A stretch of 64,000 nucleotides of DNA, from the NCBI GenBank assembly GCA_035686425.1, contig DASRZL010000154.1, forward strand, positions 954 to 64,953, in the 5' to 3' direction. The notes under the pieces were generated by a model. It did no database searches. It saw only the letters and a list, made by a program, of their open reading frames with translations, and was not told where the DNA came from. This document shows positions 162-51,195 of this stretch, piece by piece. The position numbers and the translations under genes are program-made. The stretch comes from Thermoleophilia bacterium. Lineage in GTDB: Bacteria; Actinomycetota; Thermoleophilia; UBA2241. Every line of letters begins with the position of its first letter. The stretch's first letter is position 1.

Positions 162-1415
162 TCAGGCGTCGCCGGCGACGATCTCGCGTCGCAGCAGCAC
201 CAGCTCGTCGGCGAGCCAGTCTGCTCGCGCGCGCCGCATCTCCACGCCGGCCTCGCGCAGCACGTAGCTCGGCCCCTTGTTGACGTTGCGCACAGTGATC
301 AGTACGTCGATGCCATGCCCGACGAGCCATTCGGCCACGAGGATCCCCTTCTGCTTCTCGAGTGCGCGATGCGGGTTCTCGAGGATCTCCTGCCGCAGCA
401 CCCGACCGTCGGCCGTGCTGACCTCGGCGAGGCCGAAGTGGGGGGCCTCGCCGAACTCGTTGCCGATTGCGCCGTCGGGCGAAGCAAGGGGCAGCGCCAA
501 GCGGAGGATGTCGCGGCGGCGGGGCTCCAGATGAAGGTTCACCCGTTCCACGGCAGGGACCGCAACGCGGATCTGGGCCTCCAGGTCCTCGCTGACCGCA
601 TGCGCCTTGACGAGGTCGTCAGTGCGCAGGCGCAGGCTGGCCTCGACGAACACGTAGCGCCCGGCGTTGCGCACCGCCCGTCCGTCGACGTGTTCGACGA
701 GTGCTTCCGCCGTCAGGATCGTGTCGACGCGGGCGAGCGTCCCGGCGTCGACCGATGCGTCCAACAGGACCCTCATGCCGCTCACCAGCAGCCCCCAGCC
801 GGAGTAGACGGCGAACCCGAGGATCACGAGGGCGCCCGCGCGGTCTATGTTGAAACCGGCGTAGGTGGACACGACCGCGACCAGCGCGACGGCCGTCGAT
901 ACCACGTCAGTCTGGCGATGTTTGCCGTCCGCCACCAGGGCCGGCGACGAAACGCGCTTGCCCAGCCTCGTCGCGTACCAGCCGTAGGCCCACGTCGCCG
1001 CGATCGTGACCACGACACCGGCGATGACCAAGGGGTCGATGCTGGGTGTTGGTCGGCCGCTCACGAAAGCCTCCCGCGCGATCTCATACGAGGCGATGAA
1101 GATGAGCAGCGCTATGGCTACCTGCAGGAGGTTCTCGATCTTGTAGAGGCCGTAGGGGAAGGCGGTGGTCTTACGCTCCGAGAGCCTGAGGCCGAGCCAC
1201 AGCGCCAGCGCTGCCGCCACGTCGACCACACAGTCCACCGCCGTCGCAGTGAGCGCGAAGCTATGAGAGACCGCGGCGATGGTCACGGTCAAGGTCACCA
1301 GGGCCACGCTCACCAAGACACCCCATGTCGCGACCCGCGCCACCGCGTGACCCACGGCGGCGCGGTCGCCGTCCGCTCGACCGCCGGCGCGGGTCTCCCT
1401 CGTCGCCGGCCCGCT
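162..1415 (-). CDS. Cation diffusion facilitator (CDF) family metal transporter with a C-terminal NifX/NafY-like (dinitrogenase FeMo-cofactor family) domain. Alternative start at 1445.
   Basis: The ORF contains the CDF signature region (SHSFALTATAVDCVVD ... AFPYGLYKIENL) and six predicted TM helices. The C-terminal about 100 aa (GILVAEWLVGHGIDVLITVRNVNKGPSYVLREAGVEM) resembles the NifB/NifX/NafY family. GAGGTGG lies 8 nt upstream of the ATG at 1415. The first 115 codons of the long ORF are Arg-rich off-composition and are excluded. Confidence 0.7.
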   Translation of the reverse strand, partial: SGPATRETRAGGRADGDRAAVGHAVARVATWGVLVSVALVTLTVTIAAVSHSFALTATAVDCVVDVAAALALWLGLRLSERKTTAFPYGLYKIENLLQVAIALLIFIASYEIAREAFVSGRPTPSIDPLVIAGVVVTIAATWAYGWYATRLGKRVSSPALVADGKHRQTDVVSTAVALVAVVSTYAGFNIDRAGALVILGFAVYSGWGLLVSGMRVLLDASVDAGTLARVDTILTAEALVEHVDGRAVRNAGRYVFVEASLRLRTDDLVKAHAVSEDLEAQIRVAVPAVERVNLHLEPRRRDILRLALPLASPDGAIGNEFGEAPHFGLAEVSTADGRVLRQEILENPHRALEKQKGILVAEWLVGHGIDVLITVRNVNKGPSYVLREAGVEMRRARADWLADELVLLRREIVAGDA

Positions 1416-1639
1416 CATCGCCGCAGCCACCTCGGACGGCCACATGCGGGTGACCTGGACACATGGGACATCGCGCACCTCCAGTCCGTCGACTGTACTC
1501 CCGCCGCTGCACGTCGTGCCACTGCATCGGCGAGCGGGCCAGGAGCTGCTACGCGAGCGGCTGCTGCGGGCGTTCGCCCCGGTCGTGACGGGGTCTGAGC
1601 TGAGGCTGGCGTGGTCATGCCGGTGAGTGCGGGGAGAAG

Positions 1640-1670
1640 GAAGAGGGCCGCCCTTGGGGCGGCCCTCTTC
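1640..1670. terminator. GC-rich hairpin: perfect inverted repeat GAAGAGGGCCGCCC-TTGG-GGCGGCCCTCTTC. It lies between the convergent 3' end of the peroxiredoxin gene and the CDF gene start. No U-tract.
   Basis: A perfect 13-14 bp stem with a 4 nt loop is read directly from the sequence. It sits about 35 nt downstream of the Prx stop at 1703. Confidence 0.45.
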
Positions 1671-1702
1671 CTCGTGTCGAAGTCGGTGATCAACAAGGCA
1701 GA

Positions 1703-2314
1703 CTACTCGTCGTCCCTCGGCTGCCAGACCTCCCACACGCGTCCGACCAGGTCCGGTCCGGGCTTGAGCACCTTCTTGCCTGGCTCCCATCCGGAGGGCG
1801 TGACCTCCTTCCCCCCGGTGGCGCGCACGTGCTGGAACGCCTTGATCTGCCGCAGCGTCTCCGCGATCTTGCGACCGACGGGCGGGACGAGCACTTCCAT
1901 GGCCTGGATCACGCCGTCTGGGTCGATGATGAACCGGCCACGGATGTCGACGCCGGCCTCAGCGTCGTAAACACCGTAGGCGCTGCCCAGATGGCCCGCC
2001 GCGTCGGCGAGCATCGGGAAGGGCACGCCGCCCTCCGTCATCTTCGCGAGCTCGTTCTCATCCCACATCTTGTGGACGAACTGCGAATCCACGCTGGCCG
2101 ACAGCACTTCGGCGCCCAGCGCCTGGAACTCGTCGTACTTCTCGGCGACCGCCGAGATCTCGGTCGGTCACACGAAGGTGAAATCACCCGGGTAGAAGCA
2201 GAGGACCACCCACTTGCCCAGCAGGTCCGAGAGCTTGACCTGGGTGAAGACGCCCTTGTGGTAGGCGGGCGCGACGAAGTCCGGCGCCTTGCGGCCGACC
2301 ATGATGGTACTCAC
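1703..2314 (-). CDS. Typical 2-Cys-type peroxiredoxin (AhpC/Prx1 family) with an in-frame UGA (2168-2170) at the peroxidatic-Cys position. This is a candidate selenocysteine peroxiredoxin (PrxU-like). The resolving Cys is replaced by Thr.
   Basis: Two track ORFs (2168-2419 and 1703-2107) are in the same frame. They are separated only by the TGA at 2168-2170. Read-through gives ...[45 protein letters not shown].... This is the canonical Prx active-site motif with U in place of Cp. The C-terminal motif is KEVTPSGW instead of EVCPAGW. GTG at 2314 is preceded by AAGGAGA; the in-frame ATG is at 2302. Confidence 0.75.
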
Positions 2315-2552
2315 GCTCGTCTCCTTCGGTTCGCTGGCCTGTGCGTCGTCCTTCTTCGCCGGCTGCTCGCCGACGAGAGAGCCTGTAGGACGGGCACACC
2401 CGACGTCAGTTTCTTCCATGCCTTGCGCACCTCCCGTTTGTCGCTCGTTTGCGGGACCTGTGCTGCCGCAGTCTGTGCGCCGCCACGGACCTCAGCGGGA
2501 GCTCAGCACCGGTTCGAAAGGCCGCCTTTTGTGGGCCGCCGGCAGTTCCGCC

Positions 2553-2621: not shown

Positions 2622-2912
2622 GTTCGGGGCGTATCCGTCGTCTGACACGAGGATCTCCTTCGCTGGTCCTTCGTGGTCCAACTGGAGGCCGCAGACTCAC
2701 AGGGCCACATTGCGATGCCGCCTGTTATGAGCGTATGCTCAGATCTACTCGTGAGTCAAGAATGCGGGCAGCGGTCGTTGCGCCGGCTGCGCCTCGCTGG
2801 GCTGGAGCGGGCGAGCTCGCCTGGGCCACGATCGGGCGCGAATGGAGATCGCGATACTGGGCAGGAAGCCGGAGACGGGCCGGGCCGTCACGGTGGACAA
2901 GGATGGGAGACG

Positions 2913-3275
2913 ATGAGCGTGCCTGACTTTGACGACTGGATCAGCGATGTGAAGTCGCAGCCGGGATCAGCTGCGATCGGCATGATTCTGGCCCACCAAG
3001 GCATCGTGCGTGGAACGTCCCGGTCGGGCGGACTCGTGAGGGGGATGACCCTCCGCACCGACGCCGGCCGGCTTGACGAGGCGCTCGCCGAGGCCGCGAC
3101 GTGGCCGGGCGTCTTCGCCGTGCGCGGCTGGGCCAACGAGGGGGAACTCTCGGTCGGCGACGACATCATGAAGGTGCTCGTCGCCGGCGACATCCGCGAG
3201 CACGTCTTCGCGGCCCTCCAGAGACTCGTGTCCCTGATGAAGACGGAGGTGCTGATGGAGTCGGAGCTGACCTGA
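2913..3275 (+). CDS. MoaE-like protein (molybdopterin synthase catalytic-subunit family), short form of 120 aa.
   Basis: The alignable motifs are GMILAHQGIVRG and WPGVFAVRGWANEGELSVGDDIMKVLVAGDIREHVFAALQRLVSLMK. They align to the MoaE GxVTFTGxVR and HRxGELxxGDxIVxVxVxSxHRxxAFxAxxxxMDxLK blocks. GGATGGGAG lies 4 nt upstream of the ATG. Confidence 0.45.
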   Translation: MSVPDFDDWISDVKSQPGSAAIGMILAHQGIVRGTSRSGGLVRGMTLRTDAGRLDEALAEAATWPGVFAVRGWANEGELSVGDDIMKVLVAGDIREHVFAALQRLVSLMKTEVLMESELT

Positions 3276-3346
3276 GACCTACGGCGCGGTCGTCTGTGGG
3301 AGAGGCTCCGCGCCCACGCCTCGTTCATTCCCGGGAGAGGAGCGAC

Positions 3347-3997
3347 ATGTACACGTGTGCCGAGTGTGGTCGTGTGTCCTGCGCTACCGGCGACGCAGCG
3401 TCCTACCCGCGCAACTGCCCGTCGCGCGAGTCATTCGAAGCGGAGGCGCTCGACCAGTATCGCGAAGGGGAAGACGGGCACCTGGCGCGAAACGCCGCCC
3501 TGGTGGAGGCGCAAGGGTACTGCCGGCTGACGCGCGTGGAGGAAATCATGGACTTCGCCCGCCGCTGCGGCTACTCGAAGCTGGGCCTCGCCTTCTGCAT
3601 CGGTCTTCAGGCCGAGGCCGCAGTCACCAGTCGGGTGCTCAGGGCGAACGGCTTCTCGGTCGACTCGGTGGCCTGCAAGAACGGCAGCCTCCCCAAGGAG
3701 GAGCTGGGTCTGGGTGACGAGGACAAAGTCACCCGGGGCGAGTTCGAAGGGATGTGTAACCCGATCGGCCAGGCGCGGGCCCTGGATCATGCCGGGACCG
3801 AGCTCAACCTGCTGCTCGGTCTGTGCGTCGGCCACGACAGCCTGTTCATGAAGCACTCAGTGGCTCCGGTGACCGTGCTGGCCGCCAAGGACAGAGTGCT
3901 GGGCCACAACCCGCTGGCGGCGATCTACATGGCGGACGGCTACTACTGTGACAAGCTGTTCCCGAAGGCGGACGACGCGGAGGGGGGCTGCGCCTGA
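3347..3997 (+). CDS. DUF1847-family Cys-rich metal-binding protein.
   Basis: The N-terminal MYTCAECGRVSCATGDAASYPRNCPS start and overall length are typical of DUF1847. A strong RBS (GGGAGAGGAG) is present. The first 82 codons of the track ORF are rejected as an Arg-rich upstream extension. Confidence 0.6.
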   Translation: MYTCAECGRVSCATGDAASYPRNCPSRESFEAEALDQYREGEDGHLARNAALVEAQGYCRLTRVEEIMDFARRCGYSKLGLAFCIGLQAEAAVTSRVLRANGFSVDSVACKNGSLPKEELGLGDEDKVTRGEFEGMCNPIGQARALDHAGTELNLLLGLCVGHDSLFMKHSVAPVTVLAAKDRVLGHNPLAAIYMADGYYCDKLFPKADDAEGGCA

Positions 3998-4043
3998 CTC
4001 GCTCTCCGGCCAGACCGGCCGCGCGCTGCCTGCGCCGGCCTGT

Positions 4044-4556
4044 CTATTTCGCGTGGTCGCGGTGCTCGCCGCGCCGCCGGAACGTCGTGTCGCTGACCCG
4101 GTCCGTCCAGCCGCCTCGTGTGTCCACGCGCAGGTCGAACTTCTCGACGTAGGGTTTGATATCGAGGAGCGGCGTGCCGTCAAGTATGTCGAGGTCCTCG
4201 ACCACGAGCACGTTCCCGCGCCGCTCCACCAGGCGCACGAGGCTCAGGCCGAGCGGGTTGGGACGCACGGGGGTCCGCGTCGCGAAGACGCCTCGGGGCA
4301 CGTCGTCCAGATAGGGGACGACCTTCAGCGGCGACGGGCCGGCGACCGAACTCACTACTTCGCCGGCCCGGTGCAGCCAGTAGATCAGGTGCAGGTGCGA
4401 GAAGCCCTCGATGTCATCGAGGGCGTCGGCGAACTGCGGGAAGATCTCGACCCAGCCGCGGCTGCCTTGAGCGCAGACCGGCTGGATTGGCGTGCGCGCA
4501 TGCTCGCGATGCTCGCTGTAGATGGTCCCTATCGGCTCGAGGATGAGCCTCTCCAT
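4044..4556 (-). CDS. TsaA/TrmO-like (YaeB family) tRNA methyltransferase.
   Basis: Family-typical blocks MERLILEPIGTIYSEHREHARTPIQP and ...PNPLGLSLVRLVERRGNVLVVEDLDILDGTPLLDIKPY are present. The start is placed at the internal ATG (4556) where similarity begins. Confidence 0.65.
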   Translation of the reverse strand: MERLILEPIGTIYSEHREHARTPIQPVCAQGSRGWVEIFPQFADALDDIEGFSHLHLIYWLHRAGEVVSSVAGPSPLKVVPYLDDVPRGVFATRTPVRPNPLGLSLVRLVERRGNVLVVEDLDILDGTPLLDIKPYVEKFDLRVDTRGGWTDRVSDTTFRRRGEHRDHAK

Positions 4557-4730
4557 GCGCACCTCCCACGTGGCTGCGGCAAAGCATACTCCGACGTGAG
4601 GACCCGCGCGGCCATGACGATGGGGCTTCGCGATCGAGTCGGAGCCCTTCGCTCGTATCGCGGGCTCGCTCTGCAGCTGAAGGAAGGGGCCGGCGGACTC
4701 GAGGACGGCGACGCCCCTCCACAACAGGAA

Positions 4731-4763
4731 CGGCCCGCGACCGTCTGAGACGGTCGCGGGCCG
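4731..4763. terminator. Strong GC hairpin (15 bp perfect stem CGGCCCGCGACCGTC / GACGGTCGCGGGCCG, loop TGA) about 90 nt downstream of the qmoC-like gene.
   Basis: The perfect inverted repeat is read directly. It sits at the 3' end of the seven-gene minus-strand cluster. Confidence 0.5.
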
Positions 4764-4853
4764 CTGTGCCGGGCGTCCCGTCGTCGCGAGTCCCGTCCCG
4801 GGTGGGATCCGCGAGGGCGGCCGCGTCCTTGCAGGCGCGGCCGCCCGCCGGGG

Positions 4854-5993
4854 TCAGGCCGCCTCGGCGGCCTTCTGCCCCGTGGCCGCCTCAGTCTCCT
4901 CGGCATGGACCTTCACGCGCGAGAAGTAGAGGGCCAGCGGCCGGTAGGCGAGGTGCGCCCACTTACCGAACGGCACCTCGAGGACCAGCATCGGGACGAT
5001 GCCCATGAGGTGGATGATGTACATCGCGTTCGCCGCCGCATCGAACCCCAGACGATGCAGGGCCGTCTGCAGCACGCCGGTGACGGCCACGTAGAGCAGC
5101 AGGTACAGGAACATCCAGTCGCTCTCGTGTGAGTGCGCGTGCTGCGGCGCGTCCTTCTTGAGGCGGCCGCGGATGTTCAGGATCACTGCGGCGATGAGGC
5201 CGATCGAGGCGAGGTAGCCGAACGCGTGCACCCGCCAGTCGATCTCCGGCCCGGCCTGCATGTAGCGCAGGAAGAACATGATGAGCACGAGCATGGTGAC
5301 GTAGCTCAGCATGAGCACCATGTGGACTGCCCACGGGCGTTTGCGATCGCACCTGCGCATCTTCGTCTGGGTGAAGAACTGGTAGGGCAACTGAGGCAGG
5401 GCGGCGAGATAGGAGCCGATCCCGGCCCCCGAGCCGCCCATGACGTTGCGCCACATGCGGAGCACGTTGATGCCCAGCAGGCCGACGAGGATGATCGCCA
5501 TCCCCCAGTCGAAGCGATGGACGTAGTGGCTCGGCAGGAAGGCGTTCTCGCCGTCGTAGACGCTGAAGCTCCCACCGTTCAAGATGCCGAACGCCACGAA
5601 CCCGATGCCGGTGAGGATCGCCGCGATGACGATAGCGATGATCTCCCAGGCGGGCGAGCGGTAGAACAAGCCGCTGAGGCCGCTGAAGTCGTACTTGGCC
5701 GTGAGCCAGCGGCGCATGCTCATCATGGTCTCGGCGGGGTCGGCCTCCTTGGGGCACTGCTCCGAGCACTCACCGCAGTAGTAGCAGAGCCAGGGCTCGA
5801 TATCGCCCTTGAGCTTGTCTTCGAGTCCGACCTGCACGGCGTGCAAGGGGCGGCGCGGGAGGATGTAGTCACCTTCGGAGTGCACGCACACGGCCGAGCA
5901 GTTCCCGCAGTTGAAGCACTTGTCGATGTCGGTCGCGCCGTACTCGTGGAGCTCGTCGGCGAGCCCCGGTTTGATCTGTATCGCCATCGTCAC
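4854..5993 (-). CDS. QmoC-like membrane subunit: an N-terminal HdrC-like domain with two 4Fe-4S clusters fused to an HdrE/NarI-like b-type cytochrome membrane domain.
   Basis: The N-terminus carries CFNCGNCSAVC and CYYCGECSEQC cluster motifs. These are followed by 5-6 hydrophobic helices with conserved His residues (SHYVHRF, WAVHMV, RVHAFG, YIIHLM, KWAHLA). That pattern is typical of di-heme NarI/HdrE anchors. Confidence 0.75.
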   Translation of the reverse strand: MTMAIQIKPGLADELHEYGATDIDKCFNCGNCSAVCVHSEGDYILPRRPLHAVQVGLEDKLKGDIEPWLCYYCGECSEQCPKEADPAETMMSMRRWLTAKYDFSGLSGLFYRSPAWEIIAIVIAAILTGIGFVAFGILNGGSFSVYDGENAFLPSHYVHRFDWGMAIILVGLLGINVLRMWRNVMGGSGAGIGSYLAALPQLPYQFFTQTKMRRCDRKRPWAVHMVLMLSYVTMLVLIMFFLRYMQAGPEIDWRVHAFGYLASIGLIAAVILNIRGRLKKDAPQHAHSHESDWMFLYLLLYVAVTGVLQTALHRLGFDAAANAMYIIHLMGIVPMLVLEVPFGKWAHLAYRPLALYFSRVKVHAEETEAATGQKAAEAA

Positions 5994-5998
5994 TCCAC

Positions 5999-6487
5999 CT
6001 AGATGAACAGGTTGACGTTGGCTTCATCGGCCTTGCCCAGATAGGCGGCGACGCCCTCGAACTCGATGTCGTCGATGAGCTCCTCCTCGGTGAAGCCGAG
6101 GATCTCCATCGACAGCGTGCAGGCGACGAACTTGACGTCCATCTCCCTGGCGCTGTCGAAGAGCTCCTCGAGCGACATGCCGCCGGCATCCTTCGTGGCC
6201 TTCCTCATCATGGGGCTGCCGGCGCCGGCGAAGTTCATCTTGGAAAGGCCGAGCTTCTTCGTGCCCTTGGGCATCATGCCGCCGAACATCTTCTGGAGGG
6301 TGCTCTTCTTGCCGTTCCCGTTCGACTTCACCTTCTCGGTCTTGCGCAGGATGTTGAGCCCCCAGAAGGTGCAGAAGATGGTGACGTCGTCGCCCATGGC
6401 GGCGGCGCCGTTGGCGATGATCAGGGCCGCCATGACCTTGTCGAAGTCGCCGCTGAACAGAATGATGGTCTTCTTGCTGGTATCCAT
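5999..6487 (-). CDS. DsrE/DsrF-like (DsrE2-type) sulfur-relay protein.
   Basis: The TIILFSGDFDKVMAALIIANGAAAMGDDVTIFCTFWGL ... VKFVACTLSMEIL blocks match the DsrE/TusD fold family. GAGAGGAA lies 6 nt upstream of the ATG at 6487. The start overlaps the upstream stop (TGATG). Confidence 0.7.
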   Translation of the reverse strand: MDTSKKTIILFSGDFDKVMAALIIANGAAAMGDDVTIFCTFWGLNILRKTEKVKSNGNGKKSTLQKMFGGMMPKGTKKLGLSKMNFAGAGSPMMRKATKDAGGMSLEELFDSAREMDVKFVACTLSMEILGFTEEELIDDIEFEGVAAYLGKADEANVNLFI

Positions 6488-6759
6488 CACGATTCCTCTC
6501 GTGGGACCGCTTGATAGGGGAAGTAGCCGTCGTCGTCGACCTCTTTGATCTCCGCGATCCAGCCGTACTTGCGCAGGCCCATCACCCAGAAGACGACCTC
6601 TCGGCTGGGCCTGCCCAGCGCCTCGGCTATCTGGGGAATGGTCAGCGGGCCGGACTCGAGCGCCTTGAGGATCCGGCCCCTCATGAACTGCTCATCGCGG
6701 ATGATCTCGCGGACGTCGCGGGGACGTGCCTCGAGCTGTGCCGTGTCGGTCGTGCTCAT
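6487..6759 (-). CDS. Small (90 aa) winged-helix-like protein of unknown function inside the cluster. Possibly a regulatory or assembly factor.
   Basis: The translation is MSTTDTAQLEARPRDVREIIRDEQFMRGRILKALESGPLTIPQIAEALGRPSREVVFWVMGLRKYGWIAEIKE. It is coupled at both ends: ATGA with the upstream gene and TGATG with the downstream gene. The first 69 codons of the track ORF are antisense junk. Confidence 0.5.
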   Translation of the reverse strand: MSTTDTAQLEARPRDVREIIRDEQFMRGRILKALESGPLTIPQIAEALGRPSREVVFWVMGLRKYGWIAEIKEVDDDGYFPYQAVPREES

Positions 6760-8498
6760 ACGCACACCACCTCCAGCATGCCGTCGATCATCGCCTTGAT
6801 CTGGGCGTCGGTGTAGCCCTGCAGGTCGATCGCGTCCGACGGGCAGACGGGGACGCAGCCGCCGCAGCCCTTGCAGGCGGTGCGGGAGATCGTCGCGATC
6901 TCCTTGCCGCCCTCCTCTACCTTGGCGATGGCGTCGTAGGGACAGGTGAACTCGCAGGCGCCGCACCAGGTGCAGGCGTCGGCGTCGACGGTGGCGACGA
7001 GCGGGTCGAGCTCGGCGTAGCCGCGCTTGAGGATAGCGGCGCTCTGGGTCACCGCGGCGAGCCCGGAGGCAACCGACTCGGACGAGGTCTTGGGACTTTG
7101 GCAGGCGCCGCAGATGTAGGCGCCGTCCACGACCGTCTCGACCGGGCGCAGCTTGGGGTGGATCTCGTTGTAGAAGCCGCTCTGACCCACCGGCAGCTTG
7201 AGCGTCTTGGTCAGTCCCTCGTTCTCCCGTGGCACCATGCCGGTGACCAGGACGACCAGGTCGGCGGCGAGCGCGACCTCCTCGCCCTCTGACAGGAGGT
7301 CGCGGGCCGTCACCGTGACGCCGCCGGACTTCGCGTCCTTCTCGACCGCCGGCGGCTCGTCGTCGGGGAACTTGACGAACGCAGAGCCCTTCTCGAGCGC
7401 ATCGGCGTACAGAAGTTCGTACTTCCCGTAGGTCCGCATATCGCGGTAGAAGTGGTACTGGTGGACGCGCCCGGGCCGGGCATCGACCTGGGTCGCCGCG
7501 TGCACGGCTGCCGTGCAGCAGTAGCGCGAGCAGTAGGTGTTGGCGCCCTCCACGCTCTCGTTCTGGCGGCTGCCCACGCAGTAGATGTAAGCGACCGTCT
7601 TGACGGGCCGGCCGTTGTACTTGAGCGGCCCATCCGTCTCGTCGAGGAGCTTCTTGAAGTCGGCGATGGTGACGACGCCGTCGATGCCGTAGCCGAGCTC
7701 GCCCTCCTCCGGCTTGTAGGTATCGAAGCCGGTGGCGATGACGATGGAGCCCACGTCGACGGTGATCGTCTCGAGGCGCTCGCCGTTCGTGACGGCGATC
7801 GTCGCCTCGTAGTTGCCGAAGCTGCCGCTCTTGGCGACCAGCTCCGCGCTCGTGAACACGGTGATCGCCGGGTGCGAGCGCACCTTCTTCTCGAGCTTCG
7901 CTATCAGCTCGCGGCCGTTGCGGCCCTGCGGGAACATCTCGCGGAAGCCTGCGACCCAGCCGCCGAGCCTGGCCTCCTTCTCCGCGAGGAACACGTGGAG
8001 GCCGACCTCGGCGAGGCCGAGGGCGGCGCGCAGGCCTGCGACCCCGCCGCCCACCACGAGGCTCTTCGGCGTCGTCTCGACGACGATCGGCTCGAGCGGG
8101 TCGGTGAGGCGCGTGCGGTTGATGCCGGCGCGGACGAGCCGCACCGCCTTGTCGGTCGCGCCCTCATGGTCGTCGGTGTGCGTCCACGAGCACTGCTCGC
8201 GCACGTTCACCTGCGTGTACTGAAACGGGTTCATGCCCGCGCGCTTGGCGACGTCGCGGAACGTGAAGGTGTGGAGCTTGGGCGAGCAGGAGGCGATGAC
8301 GAGCCCGTCCAGGCCCTGCTCGCGCGCATCCTCGATGATCTCGGTCTGGGTCGCGTCCGAGCAGGTGAACATGGCCGTCTTTGCCACAGTGACTCCCTGC
8401 TCCTTCTCGACCTCGGCGACGACCTCGTTCACGTCGACGTAGTCGCCGATGTTGCCGCCGCATTGGCAGACGTAGACACCGATCTTGTCGGCGCTCAT
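6756..8498 (-). CDS. Fusion flavoprotein: an N-terminal MvhD-like domain, an HdrA-like FAD/FeS core and a C-terminal 2x[4Fe-4S] ferredoxin domain. It is QmoB-like but with the MvhD module at the N-terminus.
   Basis: The MvhD-like block is IGVYVCQCGGNIG...FTCSDATQ...DGLVIASCSPKLHTF...REQCSW. The FAD fingerprint is LVVGGGVAGLRAALGLAE. The HdrA signature is YCVGSRQNESVEGANTYCSRYCC. The C-terminal ferredoxin motifs are CTWCGACEFTCP and CKGCGGCVPVCP. Confidence 0.8.
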   Translation of the reverse strand: MSADKIGVYVCQCGGNIGDYVDVNEVVAEVEKEQGVTVAKTAMFTCSDATQTEIIEDAREQGLDGLVIASCSPKLHTFTFRDVAKRAGMNPFQYTQVNVREQCSWTHTDDHEGATDKAVRLVRAGINRTRLTDPLEPIVVETTPKSLVVGGGVAGLRAALGLAEVGLHVFLAEKEARLGGWVAGFREMFPQGRNGRELIAKLEKKVRSHPAITVFTSAELVAKSGSFGNYEATIAVTNGERLETITVDVGSIVIATGFDTYKPEEGELGYGIDGVVTIADFKKLLDETDGPLKYNGRPVKTVAYIYCVGSRQNESVEGANTYCSRYCCTAAVHAATQVDARPGRVHQYHFYRDMRTYGKYELLYADALEKGSAFVKFPDDEPPAVEKDAKSGGVTVTARDLLSEGEEVALAADLVVLVTGMVPRENEGLTKTLKLPVGQSGFYNEIHPKLRPVETVVDGAYICGACQSPKTSSESVASGLAAVTQSAAILKRGYAELDPLVATVDADACTWCGACEFTCPYDAIAKVEEGGKEIATISRTACKGCGGCVPVCPSDAIDLQGYTDAQIKAMIDGMLEVVCV

Positions 8499-11263
8499 GC
8501 CGTCACCTCCACGGTCGCGGCCTCACTGACGGCGACTTCCGCCGTCCCATGCGCCTTCTCGATGTGCGCGGCGGCCTGGGCGACCGCGGCGCCGGCGTGG
8601 AGGATCGAGTCGGGGATGTCCTTGACGCCCGAGGCCGAGCCGGCGACGAACACGCCGGGCAGGTTGGTGCGTCCGGGGTCCAGGTCCTCGTCGGCCTCGC
8701 CGACGTAGAAGTACTCGTCGAGGCCGAGGGCGCCGTCCTCGAAGAGCCCGGCGACCTGGGTGTTGGGCTGCACGCCGACGGCGAGGACGACCATGTCGTA
8801 CTCGGCCTCGACGATGCCGCCGTCGCCCTCGACGTCCTCGTAGCGGACGATGAGGTCGCCGTTGTCCTTCTCGGTGATCTTGGCGACGCGCCCCTTGATG
8901 AACATGGAGCCCATGTCCACGGCCTGCTTGTAGAACTCGTCGTAGCCTTTGCCCACCGCGCGCACGTCCATGTAGTGGACGGTCACATCGGCGAGCGGCA
9001 GGGCGCCCATGATCAGCTGGTTGTGCTTGATGGAGTACATGCAGCAGATGCGCGAGCACAGGGGGTTGCCCACCTGCGCGTCGCGAGAGCCGGTGCACAT
9101 GATGAAGCCGATGCGATCGGGGACCTTGCCGTCGCCGGGACGCACCACGGAGTTGAACGGGCGCGTCGGGGCGAGCAGGCGGTCCATCTGCATGCCGGTG
9201 ATGACGTTGGCGAACTTTCCGTAGCCGTATTCCGGCTTGGCGTCGGCGGGGAAGAGCTTGAAGCCGGTGGCGAGCACGACGGCGTCGACGTCGACCTCGA
9301 TCTCCTCTTCGCGCATGTCGAAGTCGATGCAGTCGGCCGGGCAGGCGTCCACGCACGCGTGGCACTCAGAGCACACGCCGCAGTCGAGGCAACGGGCGGC
9401 GCCGAGGAAGGCTTCATCCTCGGTCATCGGCGCCTCGGTCTCGTTGAAGTCGGTCGGCGCGGCGTTCATCGCGGCATGGGACTCGAACGGCTCACGCTGG
9501 TCGTAGACGTCCTGCCGCGCGAGCACGCTCTTCTTGTCGGCGACCGGGAGCGCCTCGTCGAACGCATCCGCGTCCAGGGCCTCGCCCTGGAGGAAGCGGT
9601 CGATCATGAAGGCCGCGCGGCGGCCTTGGCCGACGGCGGTCGTGATCATGCTCGGGCCGGTGACGACGTCGCCGGCGGCGAAGACGTGCGGAGCCGACGT
9701 CTGCAGCGTGCCCGCGTCGGCCTTCAGGGTCCGGCTTGGGTTGGCCTCAAGGCCGAAGGACTCGGTGTCGGCGCCCATGCCTGCGGCGACGATGACGAGG
9801 TCGCACTCCACCGTCTGCTGCTGGCTCTCGTCGTACTCGGGAGCAAACTTGCCCGAGGGGTCGAAGACGCAGGTGCAGACCTTGAGCACGGCGCCCTCGA
9901 CCTCACCCTCGCCGGTGAAGTGGTTGACGCCCCAGCCGTCGTGCAGCGTGATGCCCTCGGCCTTGGCCTCCTCGACCTCGAAGTCGTGGGCAGGCATGTC
10001 TTCGCAGCACTCGAGGCTGGCCTGGTGGACCTCGGCGGCGCCGAGACGACGCGCTGTGCGCGCCGCGTCGATGGCCACGTTGCCGCCGCCGACCACGAGG
10101 ACCTTGCGGGCGGAGAGATCGACGTTCTTGCCGAGCTTGACGTCGGCGAGGAAGGTGAGGGCGCTCATGACGCCGCCCTTGTCCTCGCCGGGCACGCGCA
10201 GCTGCACGGCCTTGTGTGTGCCCGTCGCCACGAGGACGGCGTCGAAGCCCTCGTCGGTGAGCTTGGCGGGATCGTCGACCCTGACGCCGGTCTCGATCTC
10301 GACGCCGATGCCGGTGACGTTGGCGATGTCGTCGTCGACGACGTCGTTGGGCAGGCGGTACGCGGGGATGCCGAGTGCCAGGAAGCCGCCGGCGCGCTCG
10401 GCCTTCTCAAGGATCTTGACGCCGTAGCCCTTGCGGGCGAGCTGCCAGGCGGCGGTGAGACCTGCTGGGCCCGAGCCCACGACGGCGACCTTCTTGCCGT
10501 TCTGCTCGGGCTTCTCCGCGGCCTTGGACTCCGCCTGGCCGTACCGCTTGTCGGCGATGAAGCGCTTGAGGCGACGTATCGGCAGCGGGCCTTCGAGCTC
10601 GCCGCGGGTGCACTCGCCCTCGCAGGGCGCGTAGCACGCGCGCCCGAGCGAGCCGACCAGCGGCGTCGTCTCGAGCACCAGGTCGAAGGCCTGGTCGTAC
10701 TCGCCGCTGCGCACGCGCGCGACGTACCCGTGCGCCTTGATGCCCGCCGGGCACTCGTAGGTGCACGGCGAGACGCCTTCGCGGCTGATGACTGCTTTCT
10801 TGGGCACCGCCTGCGGGAAGGCGATGAAGGCCGCCCGCCGCGACACCATGTCGGCGTTGTACTCGTCCGGCACGGCGACGTTGCAGGCCATCTCGCACTG
10901 GCGGCAGCCGGTGCAGGCGGCCTCGTCGATGAACTTGGGCTTCTGCTTGATCTTCGCGTGGTAGCCGGCGGGGCCGCTGCCGTTGCCGTCGCCGCCGTTG
11001 CCGCGGATCGCTTCGACCTCCGCGTACGTGAGCACGTCGATGTTGGGGTGATGGATGGTGGCGCCCATCTTGGGCGTGGAGATGCAGCTGGCGCAGTCGA
11101 GCGTGGGGAAGACCTTGCTGAGCAAGATCATCTTGCCGCCGACGCTCGGCTCCTTCTCGACGACGAGGACCTTGTAGCCCATGTCGCCGAGTTTGAGCGC
11201 CGATTCCATGCCGCCGATGCCGCTGCCGACGACGAGGGCATCGTACTTGCGCTTCTCGCTCAT
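8495..11263 (-). CDS. Large (922 aa) HdrA-like flavoprotein with an inserted GltD/NfnB/SudA-like NAD(P)H-binding FAD module and additional 4Fe-4S motifs.
   Basis: The N-terminal FAD fingerprint is YDALVVGSGIGGMESA. The FeS motifs are CTGCRQCEMAC and CLDCGVCSECHACVDACP. The GltD-like block is KKVAVVGSGPAGLTAAWQLARKGYGVKILEKAERAGGFLALGIPAYRLP. The HdrA signature is CTGSRDAQVGNPLCSRICC. The ATG at 11263 overlaps the upstream stop (ATGA). Confidence 0.8.
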   Translation of the reverse strand: MSEKRKYDALVVGSGIGGMESALKLGDMGYKVLVVEKEPSVGGKMILLSKVFPTLDCASCISTPKMGATIHHPNIDVLTYAEVEAIRGNGGDGNGSGPAGYHAKIKQKPKFIDEAACTGCRQCEMACNVAVPDEYNADMVSRRAAFIAFPQAVPKKAVISREGVSPCTYECPAGIKAHGYVARVRSGEYDQAFDLVLETTPLVGSLGRACYAPCEGECTRGELEGPLPIRRLKRFIADKRYGQAESKAAEKPEQNGKKVAVVGSGPAGLTAAWQLARKGYGVKILEKAERAGGFLALGIPAYRLPNDVVDDDIANVTGIGVEIETGVRVDDPAKLTDEGFDAVLVATGTHKAVQLRVPGEDKGGVMSALTFLADVKLGKNVDLSARKVLVVGGGNVAIDAARTARRLGAAEVHQASLECCEDMPAHDFEVEEAKAEGITLHDGWGVNHFTGEGEVEGAVLKVCTCVFDPSGKFAPEYDESQQQTVECDLVIVAAGMGADTESFGLEANPSRTLKADAGTLQTSAPHVFAAGDVVTGPSMITTAVGQGRRAAFMIDRFLQGEALDADAFDEALPVADKKSVLARQDVYDQREPFESHAAMNAAPTDFNETEAPMTEDEAFLGAARCLDCGVCSECHACVDACPADCIDFDMREEEIEVDVDAVVLATGFKLFPADAKPEYGYGKFANVITGMQMDRLLAPTRPFNSVVRPGDGKVPDRIGFIMCTGSRDAQVGNPLCSRICCMYSIKHNQLIMGALPLADVTVHYMDVRAVGKGYDEFYKQAVDMGSMFIKGRVAKITEKDNGDLIVRYEDVEGDGGIVEAEYDMVVLAVGVQPNTQVAGLFEDGALGLDEYFYVGEADEDLDPGRTNLPGVFVAGSASGVKDIPDSILHAGAAVAQAAAHIEKAHGTAEVAVSEAATVEVTA

Positions 11264-11697
11264 GATGCCGCCTTCCTGGCCGGTCCAAGGCCCGACAAGG
11301 AGGCCGCGTACTCGTGCATGTAGTTGGTGAAGGGCTCTGCGCAGACGGAGCAGACCGCGGCCATGCGCACGCGCTGCGGCTCAAGGCCCTTCTCGACGAG
11401 CATGTCTTGCGCGGTCTGCATGATGCCGGAGGTGCGCTCGGCGCAGTCCGGAAGATACGCGCACTCCTCGCCGTCGGCGGCGATGAAGACGCCGTCGAAG
11501 CCCTGCTCCATGGCGTACACGATCCAGCTGGGCTTGACCGCGCTCGTGCAGGGCAGGTTGATGACCATCACCTTGGGCGAATAGTGCATGTGCGAGCTGC
11601 CGGCCAGGTCGATGCCCGGATCCGAGATGTTGTTTGTGCTGAAGACCAGGATCCGCGGGTCGTAGGCTTGGCCTTCGGGTGTTTCAGCCGCGGTCAT
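11260..11697 (-). CDS. MvhD/FlxD-like small FeS protein. It is a divergent form lacking the N-terminal Cys pair.
   Basis: RILVFSTNNISDPGIDLAGSSHMHYSPKVMVINLPCTSAVKPSWIVYAMEQGFDGVFIAADGEECAYLPDC aligns to the MvhD core. The CCNWCSY position reads STNNISD. The start is at the internal ATG (11697), 2 nt after the tusA stop. Confidence 0.6.
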   Translation of the reverse strand: MTAAETPEGQAYDPRILVFSTNNISDPGIDLAGSSHMHYSPKVMVINLPCTSAVKPSWIVYAMEQGFDGVFIAADGEECAYLPDCAERTSGIMQTAQDMLVEKGLEPQRVRMAAVCSVCAEPFTNYMHEYAASLSGLGPARKAAS

Positions 11698-11699
11698 CG

Positions 11700-11951
11700 T
11701 CACTTCATCTTCTTGACGAAGAGGCGCATGTAGCCGGGCTCCTCGACGACGCCGAGGTACTCGTGACCCATCTTCTTGCTCCACGCGGGGAGGTCCTTGG
11801 TGGTGCCGCTGTCGGTGGCCTGGACTTCCATGATCCCACCGACGGTCACGCTGGGGATGCCCTTCTTGGCGGCAAGGATCGGGCCGGGGCAGCTGGTGCC
11901 GCGGGCGTCGACGATCTTCTCTGCCTGGATGGTGCTGAGGTCCTCTGACAT
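11700..11951 (-). CDS. tusA: TusA-family sulfur carrier protein (CPxP motif).
   Basis: MSEDLSTIQAEKIVDARGTSCPGPILAAKK... carries the conserved CPGP. AAGGAG lies 6 nt upstream of the ATG at 11951. The upstream 20 codons of the track ORF are excluded. Confidence 0.75.
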   Translation of the reverse strand: MSEDLSTIQAEKIVDARGTSCPGPILAAKKGIPSVTVGGIMEVQATDSGTTKDLPAWSKKMGHEYLGVVEEPGYMRLFVKKMK

Positions 11952-12048
11952 GGTGATCTCCTTCGTGACGGGACGGTGTCGTGACGCTTGTGCTTGTGCT
12001 TTCTTTCGCAAGCGATGGCCTGATGACGCGCCGTTGCCTGCTGGTCCA

Positions 12049-12486
12049 CTAGGTCGTGTCTTCTCTCCCCTGGCTCGTTGGCGTCGGACTCAAGGTCTGC
12101 GCTGCAGCCTGCTGCGCGGCGTCGAGGAACTCGGCCGCTTGCAGCGACTCGCCCTGGGCCTGGTGCTGCTCCACCAGCGCCTGGCGGATCAGGGCGCATG
12201 CCTCCATGAACTTCTGGTTCGTGACGCGGTAGTAGACGGTCTGCCCCTCCTTGCGCGACGCGACGAGCCGGCGCTCCTTGAGGACGCGGAGGTGCTGCGA
12301 CACGTTGTGCACCGAGATGCCGATCTCGGCGGCGATGTCGCCGACGCTCCGCTCGTCGCTGCAGACGGTGTGCAGGATCGCCTGGCGGTGCTCGTTGGCC
12401 AGGGCCCGGCAGAGTTCCGCGTGCATGCGAAAGAGGGGCTTCAGGTCCGGGGGCGAGGCCGTTTTGGTGTCATTGCGTATTTGCAT
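12049..12486 (-). CDS. ArsR/SmtB-family transcriptional regulator with conserved Cys residues. sHdrR/SoxR-like; it is the probable regulator of the downstream tusA-hdrA-qmoC cluster.
   Basis: The HTH region is ELCRALANEHRQAILHTVCSDERSVGDIAAEIGISVHNVSQHLRVLKERRLVASRKEGQTVYYRV. The gene lies immediately upstream of tusA on the same strand. It diverges from the plus-strand gene at 12591. Confidence 0.75.
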   Translation of the reverse strand: MQIRNDTKTASPPDLKPLFRMHAELCRALANEHRQAILHTVCSDERSVGDIAAEIGISVHNVSQHLRVLKERRLVASRKEGQTVYYRVTNQKFMEACALIRQALVEQHQAQGESLQAAEFLDAAQQAAAQTLSPTPTSQGREDTT

Positions 12487-12590
12487 ACTTGCTTATATAC
12501 GACATCTGATGACCAAGTGCAAGTCTTCACAAGAAGAGGACAAATGCAGTCCGCATCACTCCGCGTCTGGTGCGATAGGCTTGCCCGGCC
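12487..12590. promoter_or_regulatory. Divergent intergenic region between the arsR-like gene and the hexapeptide-repeat gene. It is locally AT-richer (GCTTATATAC) and carries the inverted repeat ACTTGC-N31-GCAAGT.
   Basis: Sequence inspection only. No experimentally defined motif is known. Confidence 0.3.
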
Positions 12591-13115
12591 ATGACCGTGA
12601 GCAGCTTCGAGGGTAAGACGCCGCGGGTCGGAGAAGGGTGCTGGGTGCACCCGTCGGCCGACGTCTTCGGCGATGTGCGGCTTGGCGCCCGCTGCTGGAT
12701 TGGGCCGGGCGCCCGCCTGCGCGGCGACTACGGCAGCATCGTCCTCGGCGACTGCTGCGCGGTGGAAGACAACGCCGTCGTGCACGCGCGTCCGGGGGAG
12801 ACCTGTGCGATCGGCTCATGGGTGACCCTCGGTCACGGCTGCGTGGTCCACAACGTGACCCTGCTCGGCGACTTCGCCGTGGTCGGCATGAGCGCGGTGG
12901 TCAGCGACTGGGCAGAGGTCGGGGAGTGGGCGGTCGTTGCGGAGGGCGCCGTGGTGCCGCAGCGCGCCGTGGTGCCGCCGGCGAGGATCGCCGCCGGAGT
13001 CCCGGCTCGCCTCCTCGACCGCGAGGTCGACGACGAGTACCGCGCGGTATGGCGTGGCTTCAAGCAGATGTACGTCGACCTCTGCGCCCGGTATCGCGAG
13101 GGCTTCGGGAGCTGA
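12591..13115 (+). CDS. Left-handed beta-helix hexapeptide-repeat protein (gamma-carbonic-anhydrase / PaaY / YrdA-like).
   Basis: The repeated hexapeptide pattern is VHPSADVFGDVRLGARCWIGPGARLRGDYGSIVLGDCCAVEDNAVVH... with the conserved His positions. Confidence 0.7.
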   Translation: MTVSSFEGKTPRVGEGCWVHPSADVFGDVRLGARCWIGPGARLRGDYGSIVLGDCCAVEDNAVVHARPGETCAIGSWVTLGHGCVVHNVTLLGDFAVVGMSAVVSDWAEVGEWAVVAEGAVVPQRAVVPPARIAAGVPARLLDREVDDEYRAVWRGFKQMYVDLCARYREGFGS

Positions 13116-51106: not shown

Positions 51107-51195
51107 TGCGCGTCTCCTCGGTGATCGCTTCCGCGCGTCCAGATGAGCCAAGTGTACTCGCGCGTCAAGCGCGACGGAAACTGCGCCGCCCGCCC

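Follow-up and report, generated by a model that had tools for sequence, protein, structure and literature searches.

Since 2003–2012 it has been asked by what means Qmo-type complexes link sulfur chemistry in the cytoplasm with the quinone pool, and confurcation involving a co-donor is the favoured idea. QmoABC is composed of two flavoproteins related to the HdrA subunit of heterodisulfide reductase (Hdr) and of QmoC, in which an HdrC-like part is joined to an HdrE-like cytochrome b. It was argued that menaquinol alone cannot reduce adenosine 5′-phosphosulfate (APS) through Qmo, and that confurcation takes place instead, the proposed co-donors being a hydrogenase, an NADH dehydrogenase or ferredoxin (Ramos et al., 2012; PMC3333476). 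Qmo acts in the oxidative direction in sulfur oxidisers, and a ‘type II’ Qmo clade, occurring with or without Apr/Dsr, was described as having a role that needs experiments (Neukirchen et al., 2023; PMC10504309). The name HdrL was introduced in 2009 for fusions of HdrA with glutamate synthase in Desulfobacterium autotrophicum, which have a site for NADH and an mvhD gene next to them and were proposed, without test, to pass electrons from NADH into sulfur reduction (Strittmatter et al., PMC2702500). Here we describe an eight-gene operon at positions 4854–12486 (minus strand) of a 64-kb stretch of contig DASRZL010000154.1 from an uncultured actinobacterium of soil or sediment (class Thermoleophilia), the whole stretch being referred to below as the window. 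The operon is real and conserved, and as judged from its sequence it encodes a membrane-bound Qmo/heterodisulfide-reductase-type electron-transfer complex with a built-in NADH-binding module and two sulfur carriers.

An initial reading of the DNA made from its letters (the sequence-only reading) had placed eight minus-strand genes here, and all eight open reading frames (ORFs) were recovered in the order arsR-tusA-mvhD-hdrL-hdrA-wHTH-dsrE-qmoC, wHTH being a small winged-helix gene. Their GC content at third codon positions (GC3) was 0.85–0.96, which is coding-type, and the base composition of the window was 68–70% GC. The cluster region recurred as identical stretches in three metagenome contigs (ENA ERZ27256827, 114 kb; ENA ERZ27256828; JGI 3300031673), on which independent gene calling yielded the same eight genes. 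Protein identity to the metagenome-assembled genome (MAG) ‘uncultured Thermoleophilia bacterium MFD09779.bin.2.149’ was 96–97%. Domain annotation with Pfam and NCBIfam, which the sequence-only reading had recommended, confirmed TusA, MvhD/FlpD, HdrA with GltD, DsrE, QmoC and ArsR. The tight coupling proposed for the operon was equally apparent from its junctions: those of mvhD/hdrL (4 nucleotides, nt), hdrL/hdrA and hdrA/wHTH were ATGA overlaps, that of wHTH/dsrE was TGATG, and the spacers were 2 nt between tusA and mvhD and 5–11 nt between dsrE and qmoC. The latter depended on the start codon of qmoC, for which ATG at 5987 is likelier than GTG at 5993. The arsR gene precedes tusA by 97 nt and is read from the same strand. 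The operon probably ends at a pair of GC-rich hairpins directly past the qmoC stop codon (minus strand, 4806–4855 and 4731–4763, within 4731–4855), whose inverted repeats were 20 nt long with 80% complementarity and 16 nt long with 100% complementarity; a sigma-70/terminator consensus scan of this DNA of 68% GC gave nothing meaningful.

The locus shares with QmoABC two HdrA-related flavoproteins and a QmoC made of HdrC-like and HdrE-like cytochrome b parts, and an MvhD module is present in both. It differs from QmoABC in that aprBA and sat are missing from the window, MvhD has its own gene upstream of hdrL instead of forming the C-terminus of QmoB, and the 580-amino-acid (aa) HdrA ends in a ferredoxin domain. 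Moreover, the QmoA-like subunit contains a nested, predicted NADH-binding NfnB/GltD module of 460 aa, and tusA, dsrE and the winged-helix gene lie inside the operon with arsR upstream. With its fusion of HdrA to a glutamate synthase small subunit, its NADH-binding site and its adjacent mvhD, the locus falls within the definition of HdrL-MvhD of D. autotrophicum. The HdrL proteins described so far, however, are soluble, often contain selenocysteine and are encoded beside dsrABC, fdh or other genes, and in no description are they accompanied by a QmoC membrane subunit, another HdrA, TusA or DsrE. The HdrA flavin core, the MvhD relay and a swappable donor (H2 or NADH) are also found in MvhAGD-HdrABC and FlxABCD-HdrABC, but here QmoC stands in place of HdrBC with its CCG-domain catalytic site, and the donor is a GltD/NfnB insertion rather than FlxA or MvhAG. 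The replacement of HdrBC by QmoC therefore implies a quinone as the high-potential partner. In the Flx-Hdr system, DsrC, a protein of a sulfur-carrier family, is cited as a physiological partner (PMC10504309).

The sulfur-oxidising sHdr system (sHdrAB1C1B2C2, LbpA, TusA, DsrE3, sHdrR) likewise combines an HdrA-type flavoprotein with TusA, a DsrE-family carrier and an ArsR-family regulator (PMC11094781, PMC10451225). In contrast to sHdr, the window has neither the HdrB/HdrC pair nor LbpA, its DsrE resembles DsrE2B and the structure 3pnx rather than DsrE3, its regulator has no cysteine pair of the Cys50/Cys116 type, and a membrane QmoC and an NADH module are present. EtfABCX and FixABCX belong to unrelated protein families, and the likeness would be purely functional, consisting of the proposed redox logic of NADH, quinone and a low-potential acceptor. 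The architecture had been called novel in the sequence-only reading, which was too strong, since HdrL was named in 2009 (PMC2702500) and type II Qmo in 2023 (PMC10504309), and the QmoC clade of the window, by its sequence, fits the latter. The locus is thus an undescribed variant of a known modular enzyme family and not a new kind of system. No description of tusA, dsrE, wHTH and arsR joined to HdrL-HdrA-QmoC was found in the literature searched, which left out most subscription journals, so a prior description is possible.

The same reading had noted that HdrB/CCG-domain proteins, AprAB and a lipoate-binding protein were missing, and this held for AprAB in the window by tblastn, for the CCG motif in its high-GC3 ORFs, and for all three in the flanks of the cluster over approximately 6 and 7.7 kb. 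AprA, AprB and Sat queries taken from an aprBA-linked locus (L068, see below) gave no tblastn match in the 64-kb window or in any locus of the TusA type, and the CCG motif occurred in no high-GC3 ORF of the window. No CCG, GCV_H/LbpA-type or APS-reductase family was present in the precomputed Pfam annotation of the genes called within about 6 kb on the arsR side and 7.7 kb on the qmoC side, and annotation of the window beyond these flanks was only partial, which bears on the LbpA negative. Neither a FlxA-type NADH-binding flavoprotein (FAD_binding_6/NAD_binding_1) nor HdrBC was encoded in the window.

To place the operon among its relatives, one genome per species was scanned with the QmoC-like protein of the window, which returned at least 586 loci; the best 80 were kept and classified by tblastn synteny with spot Pfam/NCBIfam checks. 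The core hdrA-qmoC-hdrA was conserved in these 80 loci, together with an mvhD that was either fused to it or lay beside it, and four mutually exclusive partner sets were attached to this core; tusA, wHTH and dsrE never occurred with the other modules. Three loci (L020, L034, L068) had the order aprB-aprA-qmoA-qmoB(MvhD)-qmoC-sat. In L068, a Myxococcales MAG (2898–12448), aprA, aprB and sat scored 912, 214 and 404 bits, respectively, and QmoB carried a fused MvhD domain. A hycI-mvhD-mvhG-mvhA [NiFe] hydrogenase set was present in approximately 47 loci from Acidobacteriota, Krumholzibacteriota, Myxococcota, Bacteroidales, Aminicenantes, Latescibacterota and some Thermoleophilia. A FlxABCD-like NADH module was found in about eight loci (L018 at 4686–12882, L015, L028, L044, L049, L058, L060, L070), where a FlxDCBA-like set consisting of FlpD, two Fer4 proteins and a protein with FAD_binding_6, NAD_binding_1 and a DHODB-type iron-sulfur (Fe-S) domain preceded hdrA-qmoC-hdrA. 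From its predicted domains, this set is a second, independent attachment of an NADH module to the QmoC core. The Mvh hydrogenase and Flx-type NADH dehydrogenase sets are of the co-donor types proposed in 2012 (PMC3333476).

The fourth set, (arsR)-tusA-mvhD-hdrA′-hdrA-wHTH-dsrE/qmoC, occurred in 24 loci, and all those with a taxonomic label belonged to Actinomycetota (Thermoleophilia, Gaiellales). The search of other genomes for the same gene order, suggested in the sequence-only reading, was thus positive for 24 of the best 80 QmoC loci, and the cluster is conserved in at least 24 species-level genomes. The GltD insertion was present in 21 of the 24. In L037, L038 and L041, the QmoA-like protein had 421 aa and no insertion, and neither an NADH nor an H2 module was found, leaving the sulfur carriers as the sole cluster-specific soluble partners. 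When the flanks of 21 TusA-type loci were clustered, nothing beyond the eight-gene unit was conserved in more than about five loci, and the flanks therefore gave no functional clue; genes recurring at this low level encoded an aldo-keto reductase, OsmC, a protein like NifB/X and an additional ArsR or TusA. In a neighbour-joining tree of 78 QmoC sequences, the TusA-type loci formed two groups among the hydrogenase-linked ones, but deep branches were short and without support values, and the tree was not relied on.

Some further observations were made on these loci. A second tusA paralogue (53–62% identical) and/or a shorter arsR (approximately 35%) lay a few kb downstream of qmoC in L006 (11682–13400), L009 (17584–19365) and L004 (20350–20650), sometimes with an OsmC-like gene. 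The hdrL or hdrA frames of L007, L008, L009 and L069 were split into two to three tblastn pieces, most likely owing to indel errors of the assemblies rather than to pseudogenisation. The hydrogenase-linked order hycI-mvhD-mvhG-mvhA-hdrA-qmoC-hdrA, seen in L075 (4520–12907) and about 47 others (including L014, L017 and L021–L027), comprised a group-3c-type [NiFe] hydrogenase without HdrBC, and its gene content suggests an H2:menaquinone(/ferredoxin) complex. No description of this hydrogenase-QmoC cluster was found in the literature searched.

The 922-aa HdrL protein consisted of HdrA halves on either side of a GltD/NfnB-type module (PRK12771, 446 bits), in agreement with the sequence-only reading. 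The HdrA2 model scored 447 bits with this protein and 468 bits with the 580-aa HdrA, and both matched solved HdrA chains at E 1e-98 to 1e-110. With full HdrA signatures in both large proteins, the possibility that they might be ordinary glutamate synthase or NADH oxidase paralogues was rejected. Residues 1–162 of HdrL (minus strand, 10778–11263) formed the first half of the thioredoxin-reductase-like FAD domain of HdrA and contained the motif FPTLDC57ASC60 and the first cluster motif of the inserted ferredoxin domain (C117/120/123/127); the HdrA N-terminal domain was absent. Residues 9–162 aligned with 146–291 of a solved methanogen HdrA, and the FPTxDCxxC motif by the flavin was conserved. 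The second position of this Cys-X2-Cys motif is printed as X in one solved HdrA chain, which we take to be selenocysteine, the motif presumably being Cys/Sec in methanogen HdrA. Residues ~163–625 (minus strand, 9389–10777) made up the nested module of about 460 aa (PRK12771, Fer4_20, Pyr_redox_2), in which two [4Fe-4S] motifs are combined with Rossmann folds for FAD and for NAD(P)H, and residues 164–636 matched PDB chains of NfnA/NfnB, Stn and GltD. The rest of the HdrA FAD domain followed in residues 626–922 (minus strand, 8495–9388), of which 626–905 aligned with HdrA 296–576; this part contained the second inserted-domain cluster motif (C625 to C641) and a C723-x12-C736-x3-CC motif, and the C-terminal ferredoxin domain was absent.

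Since residues 9–162 and 626–905 flank the module in the way that 146–291 and 296–576 follow each other in HdrA, the module is nested between both cluster motifs of the inserted ferredoxin domain. The 421-aa orthologue without insert aligned contiguously with HdrA2 141–556, and the cluster cysteines of HdrL were invariant in 12 of 12 orthologues. An AlphaFold2 model of HdrL from 33 close homologues had a mean predicted local distance difference test (pLDDT) score of 59, a predicted template modelling (pTM) score of 0.39 and values below 50 in the Fe-S regions; it was too poor to be used, and the insertion topology therefore rests on sequence alignments. S416-L417-E418, invariant in 33 sequences, stand after the second Rossmann strand where five NADPH-dependent relatives have YRR, and this replacement suggests that HdrL prefers NADH. 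An exhaustive HMMER search retrieved many proteins of 900–1500 aa that aligned over HdrL residues 8–905 at 35–49% identity, which indicates that the HdrA::GltD fusion as such is common. The gene cluster is also abundant in metagenomes, where proteins at least 78% identical to HdrL made up more than 120 clusters drawn at 90% identity.

The 580-aa HdrA (minus strand, 6756–8498; HdrA2 468 bits, PDB 5odc 374 bits) comprised an N-terminal [4Fe-4S] domain, an FAD domain and a C-terminal 2x[4Fe-4S] ferredoxin domain, and had neither the inserted ferredoxin domain nor the DCxxC motif. Residues 5–234 matched the HdrA2 model at 1–230 and residues 241–576 matched HdrA 320–652. The protein had been read as an MvhD-HdrA-2x[4Fe-4S] fusion, of which the HdrA and 2x[4Fe-4S] parts stood and the MvhD part did not: FlpD scored 13.5 bits vs. 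a cutoff of 22.3, the N-terminus was an ordinary HdrA N-terminal domain with an end-to-end match to HdrA2 1–230, and BLASTP against the MvhD of the cluster gave a single match of 27 residues. The related claim that the MvhD domain is N-terminal here rather than C-terminal as in QmoB fell with it, as MvhD has its own gene (mvhD, minus strand, 11260–11697). This gene encodes an MvhD/FlpD-like [2Fe-2S] electron-transfer protein of 145 aa (PF02662, 101 bits) that also matched the C-terminal part of HdrA2 and has five cysteines conserved among close orthologues. The accessory domains of the two flavoproteins were complementary, HdrL having the DCxxC motif and the inserted domain and the 580-aa HdrA the N- and C-terminal cluster domains, which from the domain content is what a QmoA/QmoB-like heterodimer would need. 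All elements of electron-bifurcating HdrA (FPTxDCxxC, Cx(n)CSxxCC and the N-terminal, inserted and C-terminal Fe-S domains) were there, split over two subunits.

QmoC (minus strand, 4854–5993) conformed to the HdrC+HdrE fusion described in the sequence-only reading, with an HdrC-like 2x[4Fe-4S] domain and an HdrE/NarI-like membrane domain. Across 78 sequences, eight cysteines in two CxxCxxCxxxC motifs were 100% conserved and H159, H224, H256, H289, H328 and H347 were at least 99% conserved; these six histidines are candidate ligands of two haems b. Hydropathy indicated about six transmembrane segments. The curated model NF038018 scored 177 bits against a cutoff of 300, and since the aprBA-linked QmoC of L068 also scored 177, the low score is a property of the clade and not evidence against Qmo kinship. 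By this measure the two proteins are assigned to one sub-cutoff QmoC clade, and identity of the window QmoC to the apr-linked QmoC of L068 and L020 was 51–57%. The curated model thus misses the ‘type II’ QmoC clade, including the bona fide apr-linked L068.

The two sulfur carriers and the winged-helix protein distinguish the TusA-type loci from the other classes. TusA (minus strand, 11700–11951; 83 aa; PF01206, 69 bits) had the active-site sequence RGTSCPGPIL, and its CPxP cysteine C21 was kept in 19 of 19 orthologues. DsrE (minus strand, 5999–6487; 162 aa) was a DsrE2B-like sulfur-carrier protein (PF13686, DrsE_2, 197 bits) with C123 kept in 19/19 orthologues; its PDB matches were 3pnx (130 bits) and 2qs7 (DsrE2B, 58 bits), and DsrE3A was not the closest. 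The 90-aa winged-helix protein proposed earlier (minus strand, 6487–6759) contained no cysteine and was confirmed as such by an AlphaFold2 model (pLDDT 86, pTM 0.74) and by Foldseek matches to ArsR/MarR/Z-alpha-type winged helices, which at E 1e-3 or weaker were generic. Its family counts approximately 344 proteins and has no Pfam model, and its gene occurred in 24 of 24 TusA-type loci and in no other locus class. The protein may act as an adaptor or structural part of the complex, or else as a second regulator. DsrD was considered as an analogue of this cysteine-free protein and rejected, being absent among the 50 Foldseek matches listed. Homologue searches with DsrE and the winged-helix protein gave close relatives only (at least 85% and 70% identity, respectively), which places distant genomic contexts outside the sample.

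The arsR gene (minus strand, 12049–12486) encodes an ArsR/SmtB-family regulator of 145 aa (HTH_5, 40 bits; NF033788, 82 bits), with HlyU, Rv0081, NolR and SmtB as the best PDB matches. The sequence-only reading had pointed to conserved cysteines and to a resemblance to sHdrR/SoxR; the former was correct, as C26 and C97 were kept in 13 of 13 orthologues (C42 in 3 of 13), whereas the latter did not extend beyond the level of the ArsR family. The SoxR/sHdrR/SqrR/BigR subgroup has two conserved cysteines (Cys50 and Cys116 in SoxR, 66 residues apart) that form a polysulfide bridge (PMC10451225). Membership in this group of persulfide sensors was rejected: C26 and C97 are 71 residues apart and not equivalent to that pair, the BigR model scored 46.6 bits vs. 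a cutoff of 155, and in printed HlyU alignments the sensing cysteine of HlyU (‘ILC’) aligned with H39. Thiol-based sensing is nevertheless plausible. A 22-nt element, CGTATATAAGCAAGTATGCAAA (minus strand, 12480–12501), overlapped the annotated arsR start, and its columns were invariant in an alignment of seven orthologous upstream regions that were otherwise only 49% identical. The arsR ATG itself was replaced in two of the seven loci aligned at CGTATATAAGCAAGTATGCAAA, which indicates that conservation is at the DNA level. The element is probably the −10 box of a leaderless arsR transcript and may double as an operator. Given the replaced ATGs, the annotated position may not be that at which arsR truly begins or at which leaderless transcription is initiated. 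No operator-like palindrome was detected upstream of arsR by an inverted-repeat search.

The cofactor motif set was complete and conserved from the NAD(P)H site via the Fe-S domains and the two HdrA flavins to the dihaem-type membrane subunit, and it was accompanied by two single-cysteine sulfur carriers and by an ArsR regulator with cysteines. The earlier idea of a quinone-interacting complex with NAD(P)H input was thus supported by the parts list, and its bifurcation/confurcation component gained weight because other loci combine the same core with AprBA-Sat, an Mvh hydrogenase or a Flx-type NADH dehydrogenase. We favour a type-II Qmo-like complex in which flavin-based bifurcation or confurcation would connect NADH and menaquinone with a third redox partner, probably sulfur bound to TusA/DsrE, and give this reading about an even chance; the third partner would otherwise be ferredoxin. 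In such a complex, QmoC, with two [4Fe-4S] motifs and a putative dihaem membrane domain, would link to the quinone pool, MvhD would serve as a [2Fe-2S] relay, and the NfnB/GltD-type module in HdrL would be a built-in soluble NADH donor. The HdrA flavin would couple NADH, menaquinone/menaquinol and the third partner via bifurcation or confurcation. Sulfane sulfur (persulfide, polysulfide or thiosulfonate) on the TusA/DsrE cysteines would replace the substrate of AprAB, with HdrL as the QmoA-equivalent contact for the carriers and the Cys-X2-Cys motif by its flavin as a candidate reaction site. Carrier sulfur would be reduced by NADH and menaquinol (confurcation), or the reverse reaction would take place, and the ArsR-type protein would turn the operon on upon a thiol-reactive signal, e.g., reactive sulfur. 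We consider carrier-bound sulfane sulfur the likeliest third partner because no other class has TusA, DsrE and the winged-helix protein, and because these persist in loci without an NADH or H2 module. A more specific version seems unlikely to us, namely that the HdrA flavoproteins exchange electrons directly with TusA/DsrE-bound sulfane sulfur without an HdrB/DsrK CCG subunit, perhaps at the Cys-X2-Cys motif. The enzyme would then be a confurcating NADH and menaquinol:carrier-persulfide reductase or, in reverse, a sulfane-sulfur-driven NAD+/quinone reductase. If true, the widespread uncultured Thermoleophilia and Gaiellales would have a mode of dissimilatory sulfur metabolism not recognised before, and the ‘third partner’ mechanism long postulated for Qmo would be realised in nature.

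Several points weigh against sulfur on the carriers as the third partner. The cluster encodes no HdrB/DsrK CCG domain, sirohaem, molybdopterin or rhodanese subunit for a sulfur substrate, and haem binding, flavin content, complex formation and nucleotide preference are predictions from sequence for every member of the family. Reduction of persulfide by NADH is exergonic alone, and it is not evident why a quinone link and bifurcation would be required. Inspection covered the 64-kb window, and unlinked AprAB, hydrogenase or DsrC may be encoded elsewhere in the genome; the loci compared were the 80 most QmoC-similar of at least 586. Finally, ferredoxin could instead be the partner served by the C-terminal 2x[4Fe-4S] domain of the 580-aa HdrA. 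The retention of this ferredoxin-type domain and the want of a sulfur catalytic subunit are both consistent with an NADH:menaquinone/ferredoxin bifurcating enzyme like FixABCX/EtfABCX, in which electron transfer to menaquinone would be exergonic and that to ferredoxin endergonic. TusA, DsrE and the winged-helix protein would then not be redox substrates but have auxiliary tasks, for example in sulfur supply, regulation or assembly. The hydrogenase- and Flx-linked sister clusters, which have no sulfur carriers, are most simply explained in this way, and EtfABCX provides a precedent for passing electrons from NADH to menaquinone and ferredoxin (PMC10734219). However, the coupling of tusA, dsrE and wHTH, present in 24/24 loci of the type and in no others, would be left unexplained, as would the three loci with carriers but without an NADH or H2 module, and we entertain this alternative tentatively, as possible but rather unlikely.

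Three other explanations are less likely than this bifurcating enzyme. The location of an ArsR protein with two invariant cysteines directly upstream of an operon with a TusA/DsrE carrier pair would be in line with reactive-sulfur-species homeostasis, in which a thiol-sensing repressor would induce an NADH-dependent persulfide/polysulfide reductase acting on carrier sulfur, like CstR/SqrR-controlled detoxification, with a secondary role for the quinone link. The NfnB-type flavin module is kin to enzymes formerly assayed as ‘sulfide dehydrogenase’, which also speaks for this possibility, as do the weak, family-level matches of ArsR to the persulfide-responsive regulators BigR, SqrR and HlyU (PMC10451225). 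However, C26/C97 is not the pair of SqrR/BigR/SoxR. In addition, a complex of five or more redox subunits, predicted to hold about a dozen Fe-S clusters as well as three flavins and a dihaem membrane anchor, would go far beyond known detoxification reductases, and sulfide:quinone oxidoreductase, persulfide dioxygenase and rhodanese were not found near the cluster; a role in detoxification is therefore considered improbable. Still more doubtful is operation in the oxidative direction, with sulfane sulfur of TusA/DsrE oxidised and electrons bifurcated to menaquinone and NAD+, so that NADH would be formed without reverse electron transport by a Qmo-based analogue of sHdr. The midpoint potentials would permit it, the carrier proteins and regulator family are as in sHdr clusters (PMC11094781), and Qmo itself is known to run oxidatively (PMC10504309). 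Yet no HdrB-type non-cubane-cluster subunit or LbpA is encoded near the cluster, DsrAB, Sox and AprAB genes are absent from the window, and no plausible catalyst is available here past the persulfide level. The last alternative, that a normal QmoABC works with an APS reductase whose genes lie elsewhere in the genome and that tusA and dsrE are mere neighbours, draws on the identity of QmoC to its apr-linked counterparts given above. It is very improbable: apr and sat were not found in the 64 kb, the gene order and GltD insertion are unlike those of aprBA-qmoABC-sat loci, and tusA, wHTH and dsrE are translationally coupled in the operon and strictly co-inherited.

The QmoC clade thus has candidate co-donors written into its gene clusters, in the form of Mvh hydrogenase, a Flx-type module or an NADH module inside the QmoA-like subunit, and these natural module swaps constitute a compact set for biochemical tests of bifurcation and confurcation. 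In the class of the window, TusA and DsrE stand where AprAB is found in the apr-linked relatives. For common soil and sediment Thermoleophilia, this suggests that NADH, menaquinone and sulfur carriers are linked in a way not recognised so far. Were TusA and DsrE only accessory, the complex would still be a new NADH:quinone(/ferredoxin) HdrA complex, albeit a less surprising one.

Genes for MoaE and a DUF1847 protein lay just downstream of the Qmo-like operon (window ~2.7–4.0 kb), and the remaining genes of the window encoded transporters, a TelA protein, an FdhA-type molybdoenzyme with MobA/B and housekeeping functions. The FdhA/NuoG-type molybdopterin oxidoreductase (48425–52317, minus strand; Fer2_4, NADH-G 4Fe-4S, Molybdopterin, Molydop_binding) adjoined a MobA-MobB fusion, and no operon link was established. 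A 2-Cys peroxiredoxin (AhpC-TSA and 1-cysPrx_C) at 1703–2419 (minus strand) had a single in-frame TGA (2168–2170) at the position of the peroxidatic cysteine (FTFV*PTE), and the same split occurred in independent assemblies; judging from this position, it is probably a selenocysteine peroxiredoxin (PrxU-like) rather than a pseudogene. A hairpin began at the UGA, with a fold z-score of only −1.4, and tRNA genes of any kind were absent from the window. At 162–1790 (minus strand), a cation-diffusion-facilitator transporter (Cation_efflux and ZT_dimer) was fused to a C-terminal dinitrogenase FeMo-cofactor-binding (NifB/X-like) domain, and a stand-alone gene for such a domain recurred near several TusA-type loci.

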